From NCBI GenBank assembly GCA_020633325.1, contig JACKDX010000001.1:178179-242178 (forward strand): DNA of 64,000 bases. Reading direction: 5' to 3'. The notes beneath the pieces are model-generated. The model made no database searches. It had not been told where the DNA came from and saw only the letters and a program-made list of their open reading frames with translations. This document shows, one piece after another, positions 9,128-16,136 of this stretch; within the stretch, counting starts at the first letter, position 1; every line of letters begins with the position of its first letter. The DNA comes from Myxococcales bacterium (GTDB lineage Bacteria > Myxococcota_A > Polyangia > Polyangiales > GCA-016699535). The position numbers were made by a program, and so were the translations under genes.

Positions 9128-9817
9128 ATGAACGCATTCACGACTAAGTCTCTGGCTGTGACCAACGCGATCAAGGGCCCCGTAGCGGCGATGTTCCTGC
9201 TGCTTGCCTCTTCCACCGCGGTCGCTCAGGGTACAAGCATGATCGACCTTGAGAGCGCGCGCGAGCAGCTGCGCTACGAACCCAAGGTCGCTGAAGTGGT
9301 GCGCAAGTGTCTCGAGTACTTCCGCGTGAGCCCGGAGAATTTCGATGACATGAGGCGTGCGGCACGTCAGCGCGCCGCGCTTCCTCTTCTTGCAGGCGGC
9401 TACCGCTTTGACGTGGACGACTTCGCCCGAAAGGAACAGCAGCAAATCACAGCCCCTCGCCGCAACGAGGAGGACACCCAGAGGCAGGCCCATGCATTTA
9501 CCATTGGTGCCGTCTGGGACTTACGCGAGCTCGTATTCAATCCGGCTGAAGTCCAAGTTTACGGCATCATCGGCGTGCAGCGCGACCTTTTGCTTGAGGC
9601 GACCAGGACCTACTATTTGCGTCGGCAGCTACTGTTACGCCTTTTGTTGCGACCCCCTGAAGATGAGGTGGCGCGCGAAGCACTCAATCTTCGTATCGAT
9701 GAGTTTACGGCGCTCCTCGACGTCTTGACCGGTGGCTGGTTTACACGCACCACTGAGGTACGATCGCGGAAAACGAAAATGCAAGGCGCCGCCGCCCCAA
9801 GTAGCCAAGCACGCTAA
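9128..9817 (+). CDS. secreted protein of unknown function
   Basis: ORF 9122..9817, ATG at 9128. Signal peptide AAMFLLLASSTAVAQG. Confidence 0.45.
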   Translation: MNAFTTKSLAVTNAIKGPVAAMFLLLASSTAVAQGTSMIDLESAREQLRYEPKVAEVVRKCLEYFRVSPENFDDMRRAARQRAALPLLAGGYRFDVDDFARKEQQQITAPRRNEEDTQRQAHAFTIGAVWDLRELVFNPAEVQVYGIIGVQRDLLLEATRTYYLRRQLLLRLLLRPPEDEVAREALNLRIDEFTALLDVLTGGWFTRTTEVRSRKTKMQGAAAPSSQAR

Positions 9818-9836: not shown

Positions 9837-10946
9837 ATGAAGCAGTATTGGTTACTCAACCCAGGTCCCGTTAATACGACGGCTACGGTGAAACAAGCCG
9901 CACTCGCTGCAGATCTCTGTCATCGTGAACCGGAGTACAGCGCCCTCATGACCGAGGTGCGCCATAAGCTTTTGGAAGCCACCGGCATTGGCACCAAGGG
10001 CTATCAGACGGCCCTCATTGCGGGATCTGGCACCGCGGCGCTCGAGCTGTCCATCGCTTCCATTGTGCGGCCTCAACGCAAGCTTCTCGTGCTCAACAAT
10101 GGCGTCTATGGAGCACGACTCCTAAAAATGGCCCAAGCGCATGGCATCGATTGTAGAGATATCACCTCTCCCTGGCATCAGCCCCCCAGCGTCGATGCCG
10201 TCGAGCACGTCCTCAGGGAAGACGCCTCGGTTGATGCCGTTGCCTTGGTGCACCATGAAACCACTACGGGGCTCTTAAATCCCGTCGAGGCCATTGGAAG
10301 GCTTGCGAGGCGCTACGACAAAGTGTTTTTTCTCGATTCTGTCTCTGGGCTCGGGGGAGAGACTTTGGACATAGACGGATGGGGCGTGGATTTGGTAGCT
10401 GCGACCGCCAACAAATGCTTGCACGGGCTTCCCGGCGTTGCGTTCGTACTCGCCTCTGATCGGGGGCGTGCGCATGTCGCTGAGGTGCCGCCGCGCTCGG
10501 TTTACTTCGATTTACGCAATTATCTCGAGCAACAAGAGGCAGGAGCTGTGCCATTTACGCCATGCATCTCGGGCACATACACGCTTCTTCAGGCGCTCGA
10601 CGAGCTTGAGGCTGAAGGGGGAATCTCTCAGCGCATTGCTACGTACAGAGAGCGCTCAAGCTTGATCCGCCGTGAGTTTCAGGCACTGGGGCTAAGTCTG
10701 TATCTTGATGAAGCGTTGCTCTCAAATAGCATTACAACCTTTAAGCTGCCCAAAGGGCTCAGTTATGTATCGCTCCATGAGCGGCTCAAGCAGGAGGGGT
10801 TTGTCATTTACGCTGGACAGGGCAAGCTCGAGCATGAAGTATTCCGCATCGCTAACATGGGTCATGTGCCCATGGAGATCTATGTCAAGCTCGTAGATGC
10901 TTTACGCCACGTGTTACGCGATATCCAAAGCGTTGCCACCATATAG
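9837..10946 (+). CDS. phnW: class-V aminotransferase, 2-aminoethylphosphonate:pyruvate transaminase (PhnW)-like
   Basis: MKQYWLLNPGPVNTT, GSGTAALE, HHETTTGLLNP, the NKCLHGLPG PLP-lysine region and EGG..R..Y resemble Pseudomonas PhnW. The ORF-track 5' extension (9732-9836) overlaps the upstream gene and was dropped. Confidence 0.7.
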   Translation: MKQYWLLNPGPVNTTATVKQAALAADLCHREPEYSALMTEVRHKLLEATGIGTKGYQTALIAGSGTAALELSIASIVRPQRKLLVLNNGVYGARLLKMAQAHGIDCRDITSPWHQPPSVDAVEHVLREDASVDAVALVHHETTTGLLNPVEAIGRLARRYDKVFFLDSVSGLGGETLDIDGWGVDLVAATANKCLHGLPGVAFVLASDRGRAHVAEVPPRSVYFDLRNYLEQQEAGAVPFTPCISGTYTLLQALDELEAEGGISQRIATYRERSSLIRREFQALGLSLYLDEALLSNSITTFKLPKGLSYVSLHERLKQEGFVIYAGQGKLEHEVFRIANMGHVPMEIYVKLVDALRHVLRDIQSVATI

Positions 10947-11692
10947 AGATTGGCAATGACTACGGCAAACACCCAATAGCCAAGGTAGGCACGAGGCCAT
11001 GCTCCTATGCATAAGGCCGCTATCATCATGAGAAAATGATGGTGGGTGGGACCGACCCACTGCACACGTCGAAAACATAAATATCCCCCTGGGCAGCTCG
11101 AGCCCGTGGAGCGCTGCATCCAACGGACGTAGCTCACCAAAAGCGCGTAGCTCACCCTATCAAAAGCGTTCTTGGGTTCACTGGCGAAAGAGCCCAAGGT
11201 GTTATCGATAGAGCCCCGTTTGAGCCGCTGCTTGAGGTTGTCGACGACAGCGCTGTGCCACATAAAACTCGCGCCCGCAGGAAGAAAGATCACCAGCCAC
11301 TCGAAGGTCTTAGGCGTGTAGCCGAAGACTGAGATGCCGCTGCGGCCGAGGTGCACGACCATGCCAATGAGCACGCTAAATGCCGTCACTCCGTCTGCCA
11401 AGCCGTCAAAGATGCGGCCCCGCCAGTCCCCGCCTCCGTAACGACGCGCAAGCTCGCCATCGACGCAATCAAAGACCATCGCGAAGAAAAACAAACATCC
11501 GCCCAAGACGGGCCAGGGAAGCGGCGCTGCGTAGAACACGCCCGTGATGACGCCGAGGGCAGCCGTAAATAACGTCACTTGGTTGGCGGTGATGCCTCGA
11601 GGCCCGAGCCTTCGCGCGATCCAGCGGCCCAGGGGGCGACAGATGGCGGCATCCAACACCTCATCACGCACCGGCGCTTTCAGTCCGCGCAT
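10880..11692 (-). CDS. CDP-alcohol phosphatidyltransferase family membrane protein
   Basis: DCVDGELARRYGGGDWRGRIFDGLAD fits D-x2-DG-x2-AR-x8-G-x3-D-x3-D. Multi-pass hydrophobic protein. Confidence 0.8.
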   Translation of the reverse strand: MRGLKAPVRDEVLDAAICRPLGRWIARRLGPRGITANQVTLFTAALGVITGVFYAAPLPWPVLGGCLFFFAMVFDCVDGELARRYGGGDWRGRIFDGLADGVTAFSVLIGMVVHLGRSGISVFGYTPKTFEWLVIFLPAGASFMWHSAVVDNLKQRLKRGSIDNTLGSFASEPKNAFDRVSYALLVSYVRWMQRSTGSSCPGGYLCFRRVQWVGPTHHHFLMMIAALCIGAWPRAYLGYWVFAVVIANLYMVATLWISRNTWRKASTSLT

Positions 11693-12432
11693 GCGGCTTC
11701 CTTTTCCAGGGCCGGCGCAATCACCTCGCGCGCTCGAGTTAAGTCCTCTTCAAAGTCAATTTCCGTCCACGAGAAATCGTCGGCGCGCTCAACGCCCACA
11801 TGAACCACTTGGAAAAAGCGGTTAATCGCCGCTTCGTATTCGCTGTCTTTGCCGAACCCGACTTCAGTATCGTCGATGACCGTACGCAATAACGGCACAT
11901 CGTGACGACAGACCTTGAAGAAACCGACAGATTCTCCAATAAGATCATATGACTGAGAGGGATCCAATCTGCGCGCGATGGCTATGGCACGTCCTTTAGA
12001 GACGCCAATCATCATCTCTTCGCCGGTCTCAGAGGAGCGCGTATCGACCAACGCGCAATTGGGATAGCTGCTATCGCGAAGACGCATGAATAGACCGGGA
12101 CCATAGTATACATCGGCATCCATAAAAATGAGATCGTCGTCTCGAAGGGCACCTAGCGCGGACTTAAGCGAAAGCAAAGAGCCATGCCTGTAATCGGGGT
12201 TAAATACCCAGTCGATGGGGCGTGCAAAGGGAAGCTCTAGGACAGCCTTGCGCAGCATCTCAGATTGATGCCCCGTCACTATGGTGATGTGATCGATGCC
12301 TGCATGCTGATACGTACGGAGGTGCCTCTCAAGAAGCGATTCTTCAGCCACTTTTAACAAACACTTGGGAAGCGTTTCGGTGTAAGGAGCCAGGCGTTTT
12401 CCCATGCCGGCCGCCAATAAGACGACCTGCAT
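11680..12432 (-). CDS. LicC/PntC-like nucleotidyltransferase (cytidylyltransferase family)
   Basis: MQVVLLAAGMGKRLAPYTETLPKCLL has the canonical GxGxR. The ATG at 12432 shares one base with the upstream stop (TGATG). Confidence 0.7.
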   Translation of the reverse strand: MQVVLLAAGMGKRLAPYTETLPKCLLKVAEESLLERHLRTYQHAGIDHITIVTGHQSEMLRKAVLELPFARPIDWVFNPDYRHGSLLSLKSALGALRDDDLIFMDADVYYGPGLFMRLRDSSYPNCALVDTRSSETGEEMMIGVSKGRAIAIARRLDPSQSYDLIGESVGFFKVCRHDVPLLRTVIDDTEVGFGKDSEYEAAINRFFQVVHVGVERADDFSWTEIDFEEDLTRAREVIAPALEKEAACAD

Positions 12433-14144
12433 CAGCGCAATGAGGCCCAGACGCGTTTGTAATCGTCGAAGCTCCCGATCTCTGTCCATCCTTTATAGAT
12501 ATCGACCGCATGAACATCGCCGCCCTGATCCACGATGTCCTGTAAGACATCTGTGAGTTTGGCATCCTGAACACGCTCGGCTTCGTGATAGGGTTTTGCT
12601 GCGGGTTTCTTTAGCGCCGAATGCCAAGACTCTCTGAATATGCGGCAACCATGTTCGGTAAGCATCATCATGCCTACAAACTCTCCACTAGCCTTGTCCG
12701 GCTGAATCGAGGTGCCAATTTGCGTCACGCGACTCGGTGCATCAGAAGTGAAAAATCGGTCCGTAGCCTTATCCGCCCTGGGTACATCCAAGCTGACCAA
12801 GTCACGCTTACTATGGTCGGATCGCTCTGTGACCGACCTATCCACTGCGATGGTAATATCAGAGGGTGAGCGCAGTAATTTCTCCAAAACGCTGCGCTCA
12901 AAGAGCACATCTCCATAAAGCACTACCACGCGTTTGCTTAGCTCCTTGTCGGCCTTGAAAAGACTGACGGCCTCGCCCGTGTCTTTATAGTCATCATTGT
13001 CGTAGGTGCGAATATTTGGGACATCAATGCGATCTTTAAGATAACCCCGCACCACCACAATATCTTTAATGCTACAGCTATTGAGGACCTCGATCTGTCG
13101 CTCTAAAAGCGTCTTTCCGCGGATATCCAACATGGCACGGGGCCGATCCTCGATGAGCGTGCCCAGCTCAGCTTCATAGCCGGCATCCAAAATGACTGCA
13201 GTGATCGCGGCGCCATCTGCAGGCAAGTATGCCTTCTCCTCCGCCTTCATGGTGGAGACGCCTATGATTTCATAGACGTCGGTAAGCGGAACGACCATAT
13301 CATCGACGGATCCGGTCGAACCCGCTTTACGCATGGTGCTCAGCGTGTGTCGCATCGCTTTGATGGAGCTTCTGATGGCATGATTCGCACAAATAATGAG
13401 CTTAAAGCCTGCCTCGTGAAGTTGGGCCACGGTTGCAGTCTTGTAGGTAGTCGGCACGCAGACCAACGGTGTGTCGCGATCCCATTGCTTGGCAAAGCTT
13501 AGAATCTCGTCGGGTGTCTCGGACTTGGAGTGAATCAGCACCATGTCGGCGCCCGCATCCGCATAACTGCGCGCACGCTTGAGCGACTCATCCATGCCCC
13601 ATCCAGCGATCAACGCTTCTGTACGCGCAATCACCGCGAAATCTGATGAGCGTCGCGTATCAAGAATGGCGCGGATCTTACCCGCGTGTTCTTCGATCGT
13701 GGCAAGTTCCCGCTTGACGCCCGCGTAGAAAGAACAGCGCTTAGGAAAACTGTTATCTTCGATGCAAACGGCCGCCACTCCGGCCGCTTCGTACTGCCGG
13801 ACCATGTGAATCACGTTGATAGCGTTTCCGTAGCCGTTGTCGCAGTCAGCAATCACTGGGATATCCGTGGCTTCCACCATTTGGCGGGCATATCCGAGGT
13901 TGTCAGCCATGGTGAGAATATTGGCGTCGGGAATGCCGTAGCTTGCGGAGATCTCAAAACCGCTGGCCCAAACCCCGTCGTAGCCTGCCTCTTTGACCAG
14001 TTTGGCCGATAGGCCACTATGGGCGCCCGCGATGACGATTGGTCCGGACGCTTTGAGTAACTGACGAAGCTTCGTTGCACCTTGCATACTACCACCTAGA
14101 TTAGGCCGGCTGGCCGGCCGAAGTTGAGCCAAGGAGGATGACAC
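12432..14144 (-). CDS. PEP-mutase-like (ICL/PEPM superfamily) domain fused to a C-terminal degenerate nucleotidyltransferase domain
   Basis: Aligns along its whole length with Mytilus PEP mutase as recalled (DCDNGYG, IARTEALIAGWG, LIHSK, EKAYLP), but the active-site loop is EDNSFPKRCS. The C-terminal half has an NTP_transferase-like fold starting AVILDAGYEAELG. The likely start is the ATG at 14087, with GGTGG upstream. Confidence 0.7.
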   Translation of the reverse strand: MSSSLAQLRPASRPNLGGSMQGATKLRQLLKASGPIVIAGAHSGLSAKLVKEAGYDGVWASGFEISASYGIPDANILTMADNLGYARQMVEATDIPVIADCDNGYGNAINVIHMVRQYEAAGVAAVCIEDNSFPKRCSFYAGVKRELATIEEHAGKIRAILDTRRSSDFAVIARTEALIAGWGMDESLKRARSYADAGADMVLIHSKSETPDEILSFAKQWDRDTPLVCVPTTYKTATVAQLHEAGFKLIICANHAIRSSIKAMRHTLSTMRKAGSTGSVDDMVVPLTDVYEIIGVSTMKAEEKAYLPADGAAITAVILDAGYEAELGTLIEDRPRAMLDIRGKTLLERQIEVLNSCSIKDIVVVRGYLKDRIDVPNIRTYDNDDYKDTGEAVSLFKADKELSKRVVVLYGDVLFERSVLEKLLRSPSDITIAVDRSVTERSDHSKRDLVSLDVPRADKATDRFFTSDAPSRVTQIGTSIQPDKASGEFVGMMMLTEHGCRIFRESWHSALKKPAAKPYHEAERVQDAKLTDVLQDIVDQGGDVHAVDIYKGWTEIGSFDDYKRVWASLR

Positions 14145-14188: not shown

Positions 14189-14941
14189 CTAAAGAGTTTT
14201 CACCGCACCCGCTATCAAGCCGCTTTCAATGAAGCCCGGCAGCCGCTCGCACAACCCTGTCACGCGCCCAGCTGATAGAGGCAGCTTCTGTGTTTTAAAC
14301 GCATGCTCGATGCCTTCTTTGGCAGACCAGTCAGGATGCGCCAGCCACACTTCGATCACTTCTCGCTCGAGCGGGTCTAAAGCCACCGTCTCGACCTTTT
14401 GCGTGCGTGCATTCCGAAACACTCCCAACACCCACTGGCATGCGCCATAGCAAGAAGCCTCATCCAGATGATGTACGGCGTGACCGACTTCTAAGACGCG
14501 AAGCGTAGGATTGACATAGGCGGGACGATCGAAAGCAAAGTCTGCTGTCGCTTTTGGAAGGCCAGCTTTTTGATCCGCCACAGACCAACACGTCGCCTCG
14601 TAACGTAAAAGGTCGCGCGCCACGCGCGGCACATCCGCCGCGTCTTTCCATTGTATCTCGAGGTGTTCGGCAAACTCTACTACAACGTCTCGAATGTATC
14701 GGCTGACCGGGCCGGTCTCATGGAGATACCGCGCCATGTGCTCAGAGAATACCGCGGGCCCCAGCACTCGCTCCGTCCTCGGCAGGCCTCGGCGAATCAT
14801 GTCACATAGTCTATGACGTACCATGGCGCGATAAAGCGCCCACGATGACAGGGAAGCAGCGGGCGCATCAGCATGCTCTATGTCTGGATGTTTGGTAAGA
14901 CATAGCTCGGCAATTCGCTTCTGTTGTGAGTCCAAGCTCAT
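14189..14941 (-). CDS. DUF2063-family protein, putative MNIO partner (BufC/HvfC/MbnC-like role)
   Basis: LYRAMVRHRLCDMIRRGLPRTERVLGPAVFSEHMARYL pattern. The start overlaps the MNIO stop (ATGA at 14938-14941). Confidence 0.6.
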   Translation of the reverse strand: MSLDSQQKRIAELCLTKHPDIEHADAPAASLSSWALYRAMVRHRLCDMIRRGLPRTERVLGPAVFSEHMARYLHETGPVSRYIRDVVVEFAEHLEIQWKDAADVPRVARDLLRYEATCWSVADQKAGLPKATADFAFDRPAYVNPTLRVLEVGHAVHHLDEASCYGACQWVLGVFRNARTQKVETVALDPLEREVIEVWLAHPDWSAKEGIEHAFKTQKLPLSAGRVTGLCERLPGFIESGLIAGAVKTL

Positions 14942-15810
14942 AAAGATTTCGTAATTACCGATGCTTCGACCTTAAAAACCGTTGCGTAGATATCCTGAAG
15001 ACGATGAATTTCTTGCACAAGCAGGGAGAACGCAGGAAACTTTTCATCGCGCTCCAAAAGAACGGGCTTCGGCCCAAGACGCCTAAGTGCGTAATCCAAA
15101 AGCGCATAGACAGGCTCTATGATGGGCTCTGCATGGGTATCGATGATGGGACCATTTTTTTGGGTAAGGTGGCCCGCAACATGAAGCTGGGCCACGCGGT
15201 GTTTTGGAATACGGTCAATGTAGGCATACGGATCAAAGCCATGATTGACGCTGTTAACATACACGTTATTAACATCCAACAGTATCAATGCATCAGCTCT
15301 ATCGACGACCTGTAAAAGAAACTCGACTTCGGACATCGTGGGCGGACTCAAGTTGGCGTAATAGCTGACATTCTCGATAGCGATCGGACATTCTACGGCG
15401 TCCCTTAACTCTCGAACGCGGGCTACAGCGGTGAGTATCGCATCTTCAGTAAAAGGTAACGGCAACAGCTCATGCAATATGCGGCCATTGGCTTCCGTAA
15501 AGCATAAGTGCTCGCTATGCCAAGGCGCGCGAATGTCGCGGGCCAAAAACTGGCGCAGTTGCGCAGTGTACCTGGGATCAAAGCGCTGGCTATTTCCGAG
15601 CCCCAAGGTCAAGCCATGGGTCAAAAGGGGCCAACGCGCGAGCGCGTGCTCCAAGATGTTGGCGTAGCGTCCACCGCGCTCTAGGTAATTCTCCGGATGA
15701 ATTTCCAGAAACTTCAGGCCATCGGGCGGAGCATCAAACAAATCGTTCGCTAGCGGATAGCGAAGCCCCAGCCCTATCCCGTTAAGGCGTTCGTTTCGAG
15801 GAGCCGCCAT
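14938..15810 (-). CDS. DUF692 / multinuclear non-heme iron oxidase (MNIO, MbnB/BufB-like) family protein
   Basis: GIGLGLRYPL...FLEIHPENY, THGL, WHSEHLCF, IENVS, LLDVNNVY, LHVAGH, IDTH and LERD. Confidence 0.75.
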   Translation of the reverse strand: MAAPRNERLNGIGLGLRYPLANDLFDAPPDGLKFLEIHPENYLERGGRYANILEHALARWPLLTHGLTLGLGNSQRFDPRYTAQLRQFLARDIRAPWHSEHLCFTEANGRILHELLPLPFTEDAILTAVARVRELRDAVECPIAIENVSYYANLSPPTMSEVEFLLQVVDRADALILLDVNNVYVNSVNHGFDPYAYIDRIPKHRVAQLHVAGHLTQKNGPIIDTHAEPIIEPVYALLDYALRRLGPKPVLLERDEKFPAFSLLVQEIHRLQDIYATVFKVEASVITKSL

Positions 15811-15834
15811 AGATTTGCCTGCGGGTTAAACTGA

Positions 15835-15869
15835 TACATCCGTGCCCGCGCGCGGCGGATACGGATGTA
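15835..15869 (-). promoter_or_regulatory. intercistronic stem-loop between the precursor ORF and the MNIO gene
   Basis: Perfect 9-bp inverted repeat TACATCCGT / ACGGATGTA flanks a GC-only core containing the palindrome CCGCGCGCGG. It lies about 25 nt after the precursor stop codon. Confidence 0.4.
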
Positions 15870-15893
15870 CCTGACCGAGCATGATACAAAAAC

Positions 15894-16136
15894 CTACTGA
15901 GCTTCTTCAGCTGCCGGCGCCTCACCCTCGTTCATCGCGCCACAAGAACCAGCTCCGCAGGAGCCTTCTGCTGCGCCTTCTTCCATGGCAGCACCCTGAG
16001 CGCCCGGAGCGGGGGTCGCTTCCGCACCAGTGGTTGTTTCAGTCGATGCGGCGTCGTCAGCACTGTCGCCACAACCAATCCCCGCTAGGCCGAATGCCGC
16101 GGTTGCCATCACGATAAGCTTGTTCTTCATATCCAT
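15894..16136 (-). CDS. 80-aa putative RiPP precursor with signal/lipobox peptide and EGSCGAGSCGA core
   Basis: GGAGG lies 9 nt upstream of the ATG at 16136. Sequence: MDMKNKLIVMATAAFGLAGIGC|GDSADD...EGSCGAGSCGAMNEGEAPAAEEAQ. It sits directly upstream of the MNIO gene on the same strand. Confidence 0.6.
   Translation of the reverse strand: MDMKNKLIVMATAAFGLAGIGCGDSADDAASTETTTGAEATPAPGAQGAAMEEGAAEGSCGAGSCGAMNEGEAPAAEEAQ

Follow-up and report, generated by a model that had tools for sequence, protein, structure and literature searches.

Canonical phosphoenolpyruvate (PEP) mutases (PepM, also Ppm or AepX) are represented by the structures from Mytilus edulis (1PYM/1M1B) and Streptomyces platensis (5UNC), and about a third of canonical Ppm enzymes are fused to a MobA-like cytidylyltransferase domain of the PF12804 family (Rice et al. 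2019). Their partners are the phosphonopyruvate decarboxylase Ppd, a 2-aminoethylphosphonate (AEP) transaminase and the cytidylyltransferase PntC. Phosphonopyruvate hydrolase (PPH or PalA; Variovorax 2DUA/2HJP) belongs to the same PepM branch but works in catabolism, not beside Ppd or cytidylyltransferases. Most authors tell the two enzymes apart by the residue at position 122 (Mytilus numbering), which is Asn in the mutase and Thr in the hydrolase. The isocitrate/2-methylisocitrate lyases (PrpB 1MUM; 4IQD) share the superfamily fold. Here we describe a fused gene in a 64,000-nucleotide stretch of a Myxococcales bacterium contig, JACKDX010000001.1 (the window). Its N-terminal domain resembles PepM and has the same MobA-like fusion, but carries the lid-loop sequence EDNSFPKRCS in place of the canonical motif EDK-x5-NS. 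We regard this domain as a probable PEP mutase with a variant loop.

A PEP-mutase-like domain with a variant lid loop

An earlier note on this DNA had read the minus-strand codons 13760–13731 (GAA GAT AAC AGT TTT CCT AAG CGC TGT TCT) as EDNSFPKRCS. This reading was correct, and the other strings that it quoted (IPDAN, DCDNGYG, IARTEALIAGWG, LIHSK and EKAYLP) are all found in the translation of the open reading frame (ORF). The canonical motif given in that note also proved right: in the same ten columns of HMMER alignments, Mytilus PepM reads EDKLFPKTNS and Streptomyces PepM 5UNC reads EDKRFPKVNS, and three papers give EDKX5NS as a PepM-specific filter. Phosphonopyruvate hydrolase reads EDKTFPKDTS and the lyase-type 4IQD reads EDQQLPKKCG(H). 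The window loop differs from the PepM motif in Asn112 (codon 13752–13754), which replaces Lys116, and Cys118 (codon 13734–13736), which replaces Asn122; in addition, Arg117 replaces Thr121 (window residues are numbered as in the database protein P0001). It differs from PPH, which keeps Lys116 and has Asp at 121 and Thr or Ser at 122 (EDK-x4-D(T/S)S). The proposal that the loop is a hybrid is upheld, since it is lyase-like at three positions, with Asn where lyases carry another amide residue, Gln, after ED, and with the K-R-C of the lyase KRCGH motif in the same register. However, it does not continue as a lyase K(K/R)CGH loop: Ser-Phe follows the Cys instead of Gly-His.

The domain belongs to the PF13714 family (206.7 bits against a cut-off of 31.5, covering profile positions 1–238 of 240), and Pfam places PEP_mutase at residues 26–270 of the ORF (5e-61), followed by NTP_transf_3. 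Among the NCBIfam models, PepM (TIGR02320, 294.8 bits) ranks ahead of PPH (TIGR02321, 268.8 bits, below its cut-off of 374.4) and PrpB (188.9 bits). Identity over the domain is 52% to the Streptomyces PepM 5UNC, 47% to the Variovorax PPH, 40% to the Mytilus PepM and 31% to 4IQD. The closest solved structure is 5UNC (E 2.6e-95, HMMER), and the sequence matches PepM with 322 bits versus 110–124 bits for lyases. An AlphaFold model built on 16 clade members had a pLDDT of 92, with dips only at lid-loop residues 111–130 and at two other short stretches. The model superposed best on 5UNC, with a TM-score of 0.95–0.98 and a root-mean-square deviation of 1.1–1.2 Å, then on Mytilus PepM, then on PPH and then on lyases. 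The protein is therefore globally PepM-like, as had been suggested, by best family, best structure and model.

An alignment of 148 domains was used to compare active sites, with the 25 representatives that have Cys at position 122 treated as the Cys group. W44, S46, D58, D85, E114, K120, S123 and R159 are invariant in this group, D87 (23 of 25) and H190 (24 of 25) are nearly so, and position 47 is Gly or Ser. H190 lies within IHSK, where lyases carry FPEA. The window protein has the whole PepM residue set, namely the Mg2+ ligands D58/D85/D87/E114 (D54, D81, D83 and E110 in P0001), the phosphoryl binders R159/H190 (R155 and H186) and K120/S123 of the loop. Beside the defining N122C (25/25), the Cys group carries K116N (24/25), T121R (23/25), Q130R (24/25), L48F (23/25) and T88N (16/25). 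K116N and N122C thus co-vary with T88N, T121R and Q130R, all five of which are present in the window protein, and few positions set the group apart from canonical PepM. We infer that an Arg on the lid would supply the positive charge lost at position 116.

Conservation and gene context of the Cys loop

Among the 120 best homologues (57–100% identity; Sorangium, Minicystis, other Myxococcales and a Planctomycetaceae metagenome-assembled genome), 119 carry EDN-x-[F/S]PKRCS. The sole exception, a metagenomic sequence on a 2.4-kb ENA contig (P0003, 83% identical), has Arg in place of Cys (EDNSFPKRRS), which may reflect natural variation, a pseudogene or an error in sequencing. In a wider census of the best 150 cluster representatives at 50% identity, EDK..NS was found in 87 domain-complete sequences, ED[N/S]..CS in about 25, fused as well as stand-alone (~300 aa), and EDN..NS in 16. 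The census also held a few EDN..HS, EDN..SS and EDQ..CA loops and a PPH-like set with EDK..[T/S]S. When species-representative genomes were scanned, at least 542 loci proved to be related, a total that is not a count of the variant because one of the two patterns used also matches canonical PepM; in the best 80 of these loci, the Cys loop ED[N/S]-x-[F/Y]PK[R/K]CS was present in 77. Record titles assign the 77 to Nitrospirota (28), Planctomycetota (10), Polyangiales/Myxococcota (9, including S. cellulosum So ce56, Sorangium So ce1099 and Minicystis rosea DSM 24000), Binatia (9), Acidobacteriota (8), 'delta/Desulfobacterota' (5), Omnitrophota (2) and Rokubacteria (2), with three unclassified and one archaeon. 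In 85 distinct loci, TGC encodes the Cys 78 times and TGT 7 times, and the following Ser is encoded by AGY in 64 and TCN in 21. Since both Cys codons and both Ser codon families are in use, the loop is under purifying selection at the amino-acid level. EDN-x5-CS is a conserved variant and no chance feature. Nor is it peculiar to the window protein: it marks a wide 'EDN' subfamily with N, C, H or S at position 122.

In a neighbour-joining tree with 100 bootstraps, whose deep nodes are weak, the fused Cys proteins cluster together (bootstrap 51–74). The stand-alone Cys proteins are intermixed with EDN..NS proteins, one NS protein being sister to two CS proteins (bootstrap 98), from which it follows that Asn and Cys have replaced each other at position 122 on more than one occasion; the tree did not recover the Cys-bearing sequences as monophyletic. 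The EDN-type sequences are placed between the lyase outgroup and the EDK..NS crown, and the PPH-type sequences (EDK..[T/S]S) form a separate clade (bootstrap 96–100). That the Cys is ancestral and was inherited from lyases stays a conjecture, because the deep nodes are weak.

Gene linkage, which provides most of the functional evidence, couples the variant to genes of phosphonate synthesis. In Sorangium and several metagenomic relatives, the fused gene is followed by genes for a split thiamine pyrophosphate (TPP) decarboxylase (alpha, then beta), an NTP_transf_3 protein and a CDP-alcohol phosphatidyltransferase. Both Sorangium decarboxylase subunits match the Ppd model best (143.7 and 174.1 bits), ahead of sulfopyruvate decarboxylase. 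Of two genes for stand-alone Cys-loop proteins, one (P0144) adjoins a full-length Ppd that passes the TIGR03297 equivalog cut-off (379.8 > 312.5) and the other (P0157) is followed by a split Ppd. When nine clade members, window contig included, were looked up singly, a Ppd-like TPP decarboxylase was adjacent or a few genes away in six, and among the Pfam annotations of the loci examined one by one no catabolic or transport genes were noted. Linkage was then counted over 51 species-representative loci flanked on each side by 5 kb or more. A Ppd homologue lay within 10 kb in 38 of them (75%), accompanied in 27 by a PhnW-type aminotransferase, and none of these loci had a second, canonical PepM-type gene near the cluster. 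For comparison, ppd is found in ~83% of canonical ppm neighbourhoods (Li & Horsman); Ppd accompanies the clade at about the frequency seen for canonical PepM. Coupling to Ppd is seen for the clade as a whole, but not in the window or in its 71%-identical relative L003.

The PepM-like proteins with EDN-x5-NS (P0130, P0258) belong to the same EDN subfamily, often with Arg at 121 and 130, and also adjoin phosphonopyruvate-consuming enzymes; they differ in keeping Asn122, and they too fail the EDKX5NS filter. The P0130 gene is followed by a TPP enzyme and an iron-containing alcohol dehydrogenase (hydroxyethylphosphonate route), and the P0258 gene by a VlpB-like 2-hydroxyacid dehydrogenase. Both neighbour types are known branch points for phosphonopyruvate. 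In the P0258 context (L095, 307–5828), the stand-alone EDN-x5-NS gene and the dehydrogenase are followed by a dodecin and a faint F420-ligase-like gene; the context may hint at a route to phosphonolactate or at a connection with the side-chain chemistry of F420.

In six Binatia loci (L042–L046 and L070), the fused Cys-loop gene is flanked by genes for an RNase_T/GIY-YIG protein, a squalene-hopene-cyclase-like repeat protein (321 aa) and a Rieske ferredoxin, with no Ppd, aminotransferase or lipid transferase within 10 kb. The idea that the 13 Ppd-less loci of the linkage count have some other branch enzyme in common was considered and rejected, as their neighbours (RNase_T/GIY-YIG, Rieske, pentapeptide, Band_7 and lactamase_B proteins) are unrelated.

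Proposed pathway and competing explanations

The evidence from sequence and fold, from conserved and covarying residues and from linked genes makes it quite probable that the N-terminal domain is a genuine PEP mutase that has a variant lid loop, forms phosphonopyruvate and supplies a CMP-AEP route to phosphonolipids; from this evidence we infer the activity of the enzyme, what the Cys does and the nature of the lipid product. PEP would be converted to phosphonopyruvate on a standard Mg2+ site (D54, D81, D83, E110), with R155 and H186 holding the migrating phosphoryl group. The lid loop would be rewired, Cys118 standing at the place of the canonical Asn122 and Asn112 at that of Lys116, and the accompanying Arg117, Arg126 and Asn84 may relocate the lost positive charge and hydrogen bonds. 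Decarboxylation by Ppd, which adjoins in most relatives and was not found in the window, would yield phosphonoacetaldehyde, and a PhnW/AepZ-type aminotransferase would convert this to AEP. The PntC-like enzyme, possibly also the fused LicC-like domain, would then form CMP-AEP, from which the CDP-alcohol phosphatidyltransferase would transfer the phosphonyl head group to a lipid alcohol by a Kennedy-type route. The earlier note had left the choice between a divergent PepM and an enzyme with a different reaction. A divergent, genuine PepM is favoured because Ppd coupling is close to that of canonical PepM, the other catalytic residues are kept and Asn and Cys swap at position 122 between sister groups; a different reaction is less likely.

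Several observations weigh against this assignment. The TIGR02320 score of 294.8 bits is below the curated equivalog cut-off of 319.55, in keeping with NCBI's naming of most homologues only as 'isocitrate lyase/PEP mutase family protein'. The Cys at position 122 could alter the outcome of the reaction. Thirteen of the 51 loci have no nearby phosphonate partner, and the clusters of the window and of a 71%-identical relative (L003) are without Ppd. No Ppd was detected in the 64-kb window by tblastn with four different Ppd queries. In a search for Ppd-beta homologues, only suggestive since it relied on a word index, the subunits accompanying P0005, P0007, P0010 and P0013 were among the matches listed, and none of those matches lay on the contigs of P0001 (1.86 Mb), P0002 (0.40 Mb) or P0004 (4.02 Mb). 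We found no published assay of any enzyme of the EDN-x5-CS clade, and nothing in the literature on an EDN or Cys PepM or on phosphonates of Sorangium or Nitrospira.

The absence of Ppd from the window cluster is a point that the earlier note had overlooked. A 62%-identical relative (L010/L013) has the same gene set plus PpdA/B, located between the fused gene and the second nucleotidyltransferase gene. The Ppd-less lineage would have either a non-orthologous Ppd elsewhere or a different use of phosphonopyruvate. No part of the cluster is better conserved than the mutase domain (72–78% identity versus 39–60% for neighbouring genes), which is therefore still under selection.

It is also conceivable, but unlikely, that Cys118 is itself catalytic, as a general acid/base like the Cys of the KRCGH lyases or as a transient S-phosphoryl acceptor, which would make the protein a mechanistically distinct mutase with a covalent or acid–base step or the source of a new product for the neighbouring enzymes. 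In Ppd-less lineages, such a product might, for example, be transaminated directly to phosphonoalanine and end in a phosphonoalanine lipid. The Asn122 mechanism of the canonical mutase is dissociative. The K-R-C stands in exactly the register of the catalytic Cys in lyases (4IQD EDQQLPKKCGH), the Cys is essentially invariant in the fused clade despite synonymous turnover, position 122 is credited with the choice between mutase and hydrolase, and Ppd-less lineages, the window among them, do exist. However, Ser-Phe stands where the lyase motif has Gly-His, the IHSK segment with H190 is of the PepM type, overall identity to lyases is only ~31%, and the gene context is one of phosphonate genes and not of propionate or glyoxylate metabolism. 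The commonest neighbour is Ppd, which acts on phosphonopyruvate. Moreover, close relatives have Asn, His or Ser at the same position, and Arg is found there in the 83%-identical sequence, which speaks against the thiol being indispensable.

Less probable still, the protein could have a degradative function or catalyse a side reaction within the PepM/PPH branch and form no C–P bond, for instance as a phosphonopyruvate hydrolase or as an oxaloacetate/oxoacid lyase. The PPH score comes near that of PepM and Asn122 is lost as in PPH, but the PPH-type clade lies elsewhere in the tree, the much lower lyase bit scores speak against a lyase, and the context is biosynthetic (Ppd, AEP transaminase, cytidylyltransferases and a lipid transferase, without catabolic or transport genes in the loci examined singly), where a hydrolase next to Ppd would destroy the substrate of Ppd. 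Like a degradative role, a catalytically dead mutase domain, serving as a scaffold or regulatory module for the fused nucleotidyltransferase with phosphonopyruvate or AEP coming from elsewhere, fits context and conservation poorly and is the least credible explanation: two motif residues are changed, the window has no Ppd and some loci are orphans, but all metal and phosphoryl ligands are kept in the best conserved domain of the cluster, stand-alone EDN..CS proteins with no fused domain also adjoin Ppd, and no other mutase gene is nearby.

The window cluster and the reach of motif-based surveys

The features of the window cluster are collected in Table 1. The mechanical ORF call for the fused gene spans 12432–14144(-), reaching a GTG at 14144; translation probably begins at the Met at 14087, given that the product from that codon is 100% identical to the database protein P0001.

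Table 1. Features of the fused gene and its neighbours, in window positions
Feature	Position	Strand	Evidence
Gating-loop motif EDNSFPKRCS	13731..13760	-	Codon reading; homologue alignments
Fused gene, 551 aa: N-terminal PEP-mutase-like and C-terminal LicC-like nucleotidyltransferase domain	12432..14087	-	PF13714 5e-61; PF12804 2e-10; P0001; gene calls on L011
Predicted PEP mutase domain	13209..14087	-	TIGR02320 294.8 bits; 5UNC 2.6e-95; conserved catalytic columns; model
Fused MobA-like/LicC-like nucleotidyltransferase domain	12435..13196	-	PF12804; best PDB match LicC 1JYK, E 1.6e-11
Stand-alone PntC-like cytidylyltransferase NTP2, 250 aa	11680..12432	-	Best PDB match AEP cytidylyltransferase Tde1415 (6PD1), E 1.2e-15, full length
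CDP-alcohol phosphatidyltransferase, putative CMP-AEP:lipid phosphonotransferase	10880..11692	-	PF01066 7e-11
Class V aminotransferase, PhnW/AepZ (AEP transaminase) type, convergent with the operon	9837..10946	+	TIGR03301 343.6 bits (cut-off 360.8)
HvfB/BufB-type MNIO enzyme	14938-15810	-	
HvfC	14189-14941	-	

The family matches of the neighbours bear out the phosphonate-style gene context that had been proposed. The start of NTP2 abuts the stop codon of the fused gene. Both NTP2 and the fused domain combine the PF12804 fold with similarity to cytidylyltransferases, and their specificity is predicted. The two nucleotidyltransferases, which together span 11680–13196(-), have differing affinities: the fused one is nearest to LicC (phosphocholine) and the separate one to PntC (AEP).

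The window aminotransferase is 58% identical to that of the Ppd-containing relative L013. The idea that this enzyme was retuned for phosphonopyruvate in Ppd-less lineages was rejected: of 82 conserved positions, only A->T/S and V->I changes are private to them, and an Arg that appeared to be lost is also lost in the Ppd-linked L013. Immediately upstream of the aminotransferase gene and in the same orientation, 9128–9817(+) encodes a protein of 229 aa that has a signal-like segment at its N terminus and matches no family.

Directly upstream of the mutase gene lies an MNIO unit of the RiPP type (peptides made by ribosomes and modified after translation), at 14189–16130(-), which is syntenic in L003, L011 and L012. 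Besides the MNIO enzyme and the HvfC of Table 1, it has a lipoprotein-like precursor of 78 aa with EGSCGAGSCG and a weak match to the HvfA 'KCGExKCG_twice' model (14.1 bits, below the 19.5 cut-off).

The prediction that motif-based surveys would reject this protein holds. A perfect EDKX5NS match was demanded as the PepM filter by Rice et al. (2019), by Li & Horsman (2022) and by a 2025 actinomycete survey, and the variant is therefore excluded from all three by construction. In the first of these, the motif filter removed 22 fused PF13714 proteins, which could include proteins of the EDN kind; their identities are absent from the supplements of that paper. Phosphonate machinery occurs in ~5% of bacterial genomes, according to a figure cited in one survey. 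We found no prior description in the literature of an EDN-x5-CS variant of PEP mutase.

If the EDN-x5-CS and EDN-x5-NS proteins are real PEP mutases, EDKX5NS surveys miss phosphonate producers. The groups missed would include Nitrospira, Binatia, Acidobacteriota, Planctomycetota and Sorangium, which are environmentally important and partly culturable, with So ce56, whose orthologue lies on NC_010162.1 near 10.19 Mb, and Minicystis rosea DSM 24000 as cultured carriers. The diagnostic motif should accordingly be loosened to about ED[KN]-x5-[NC]S and read together with gene context. Asn122, the residue held to separate mutase from hydrolase, would then be replaceable by Cys, and the clade would represent a natural experiment on the mechanism by which C–P bonds form in biology.

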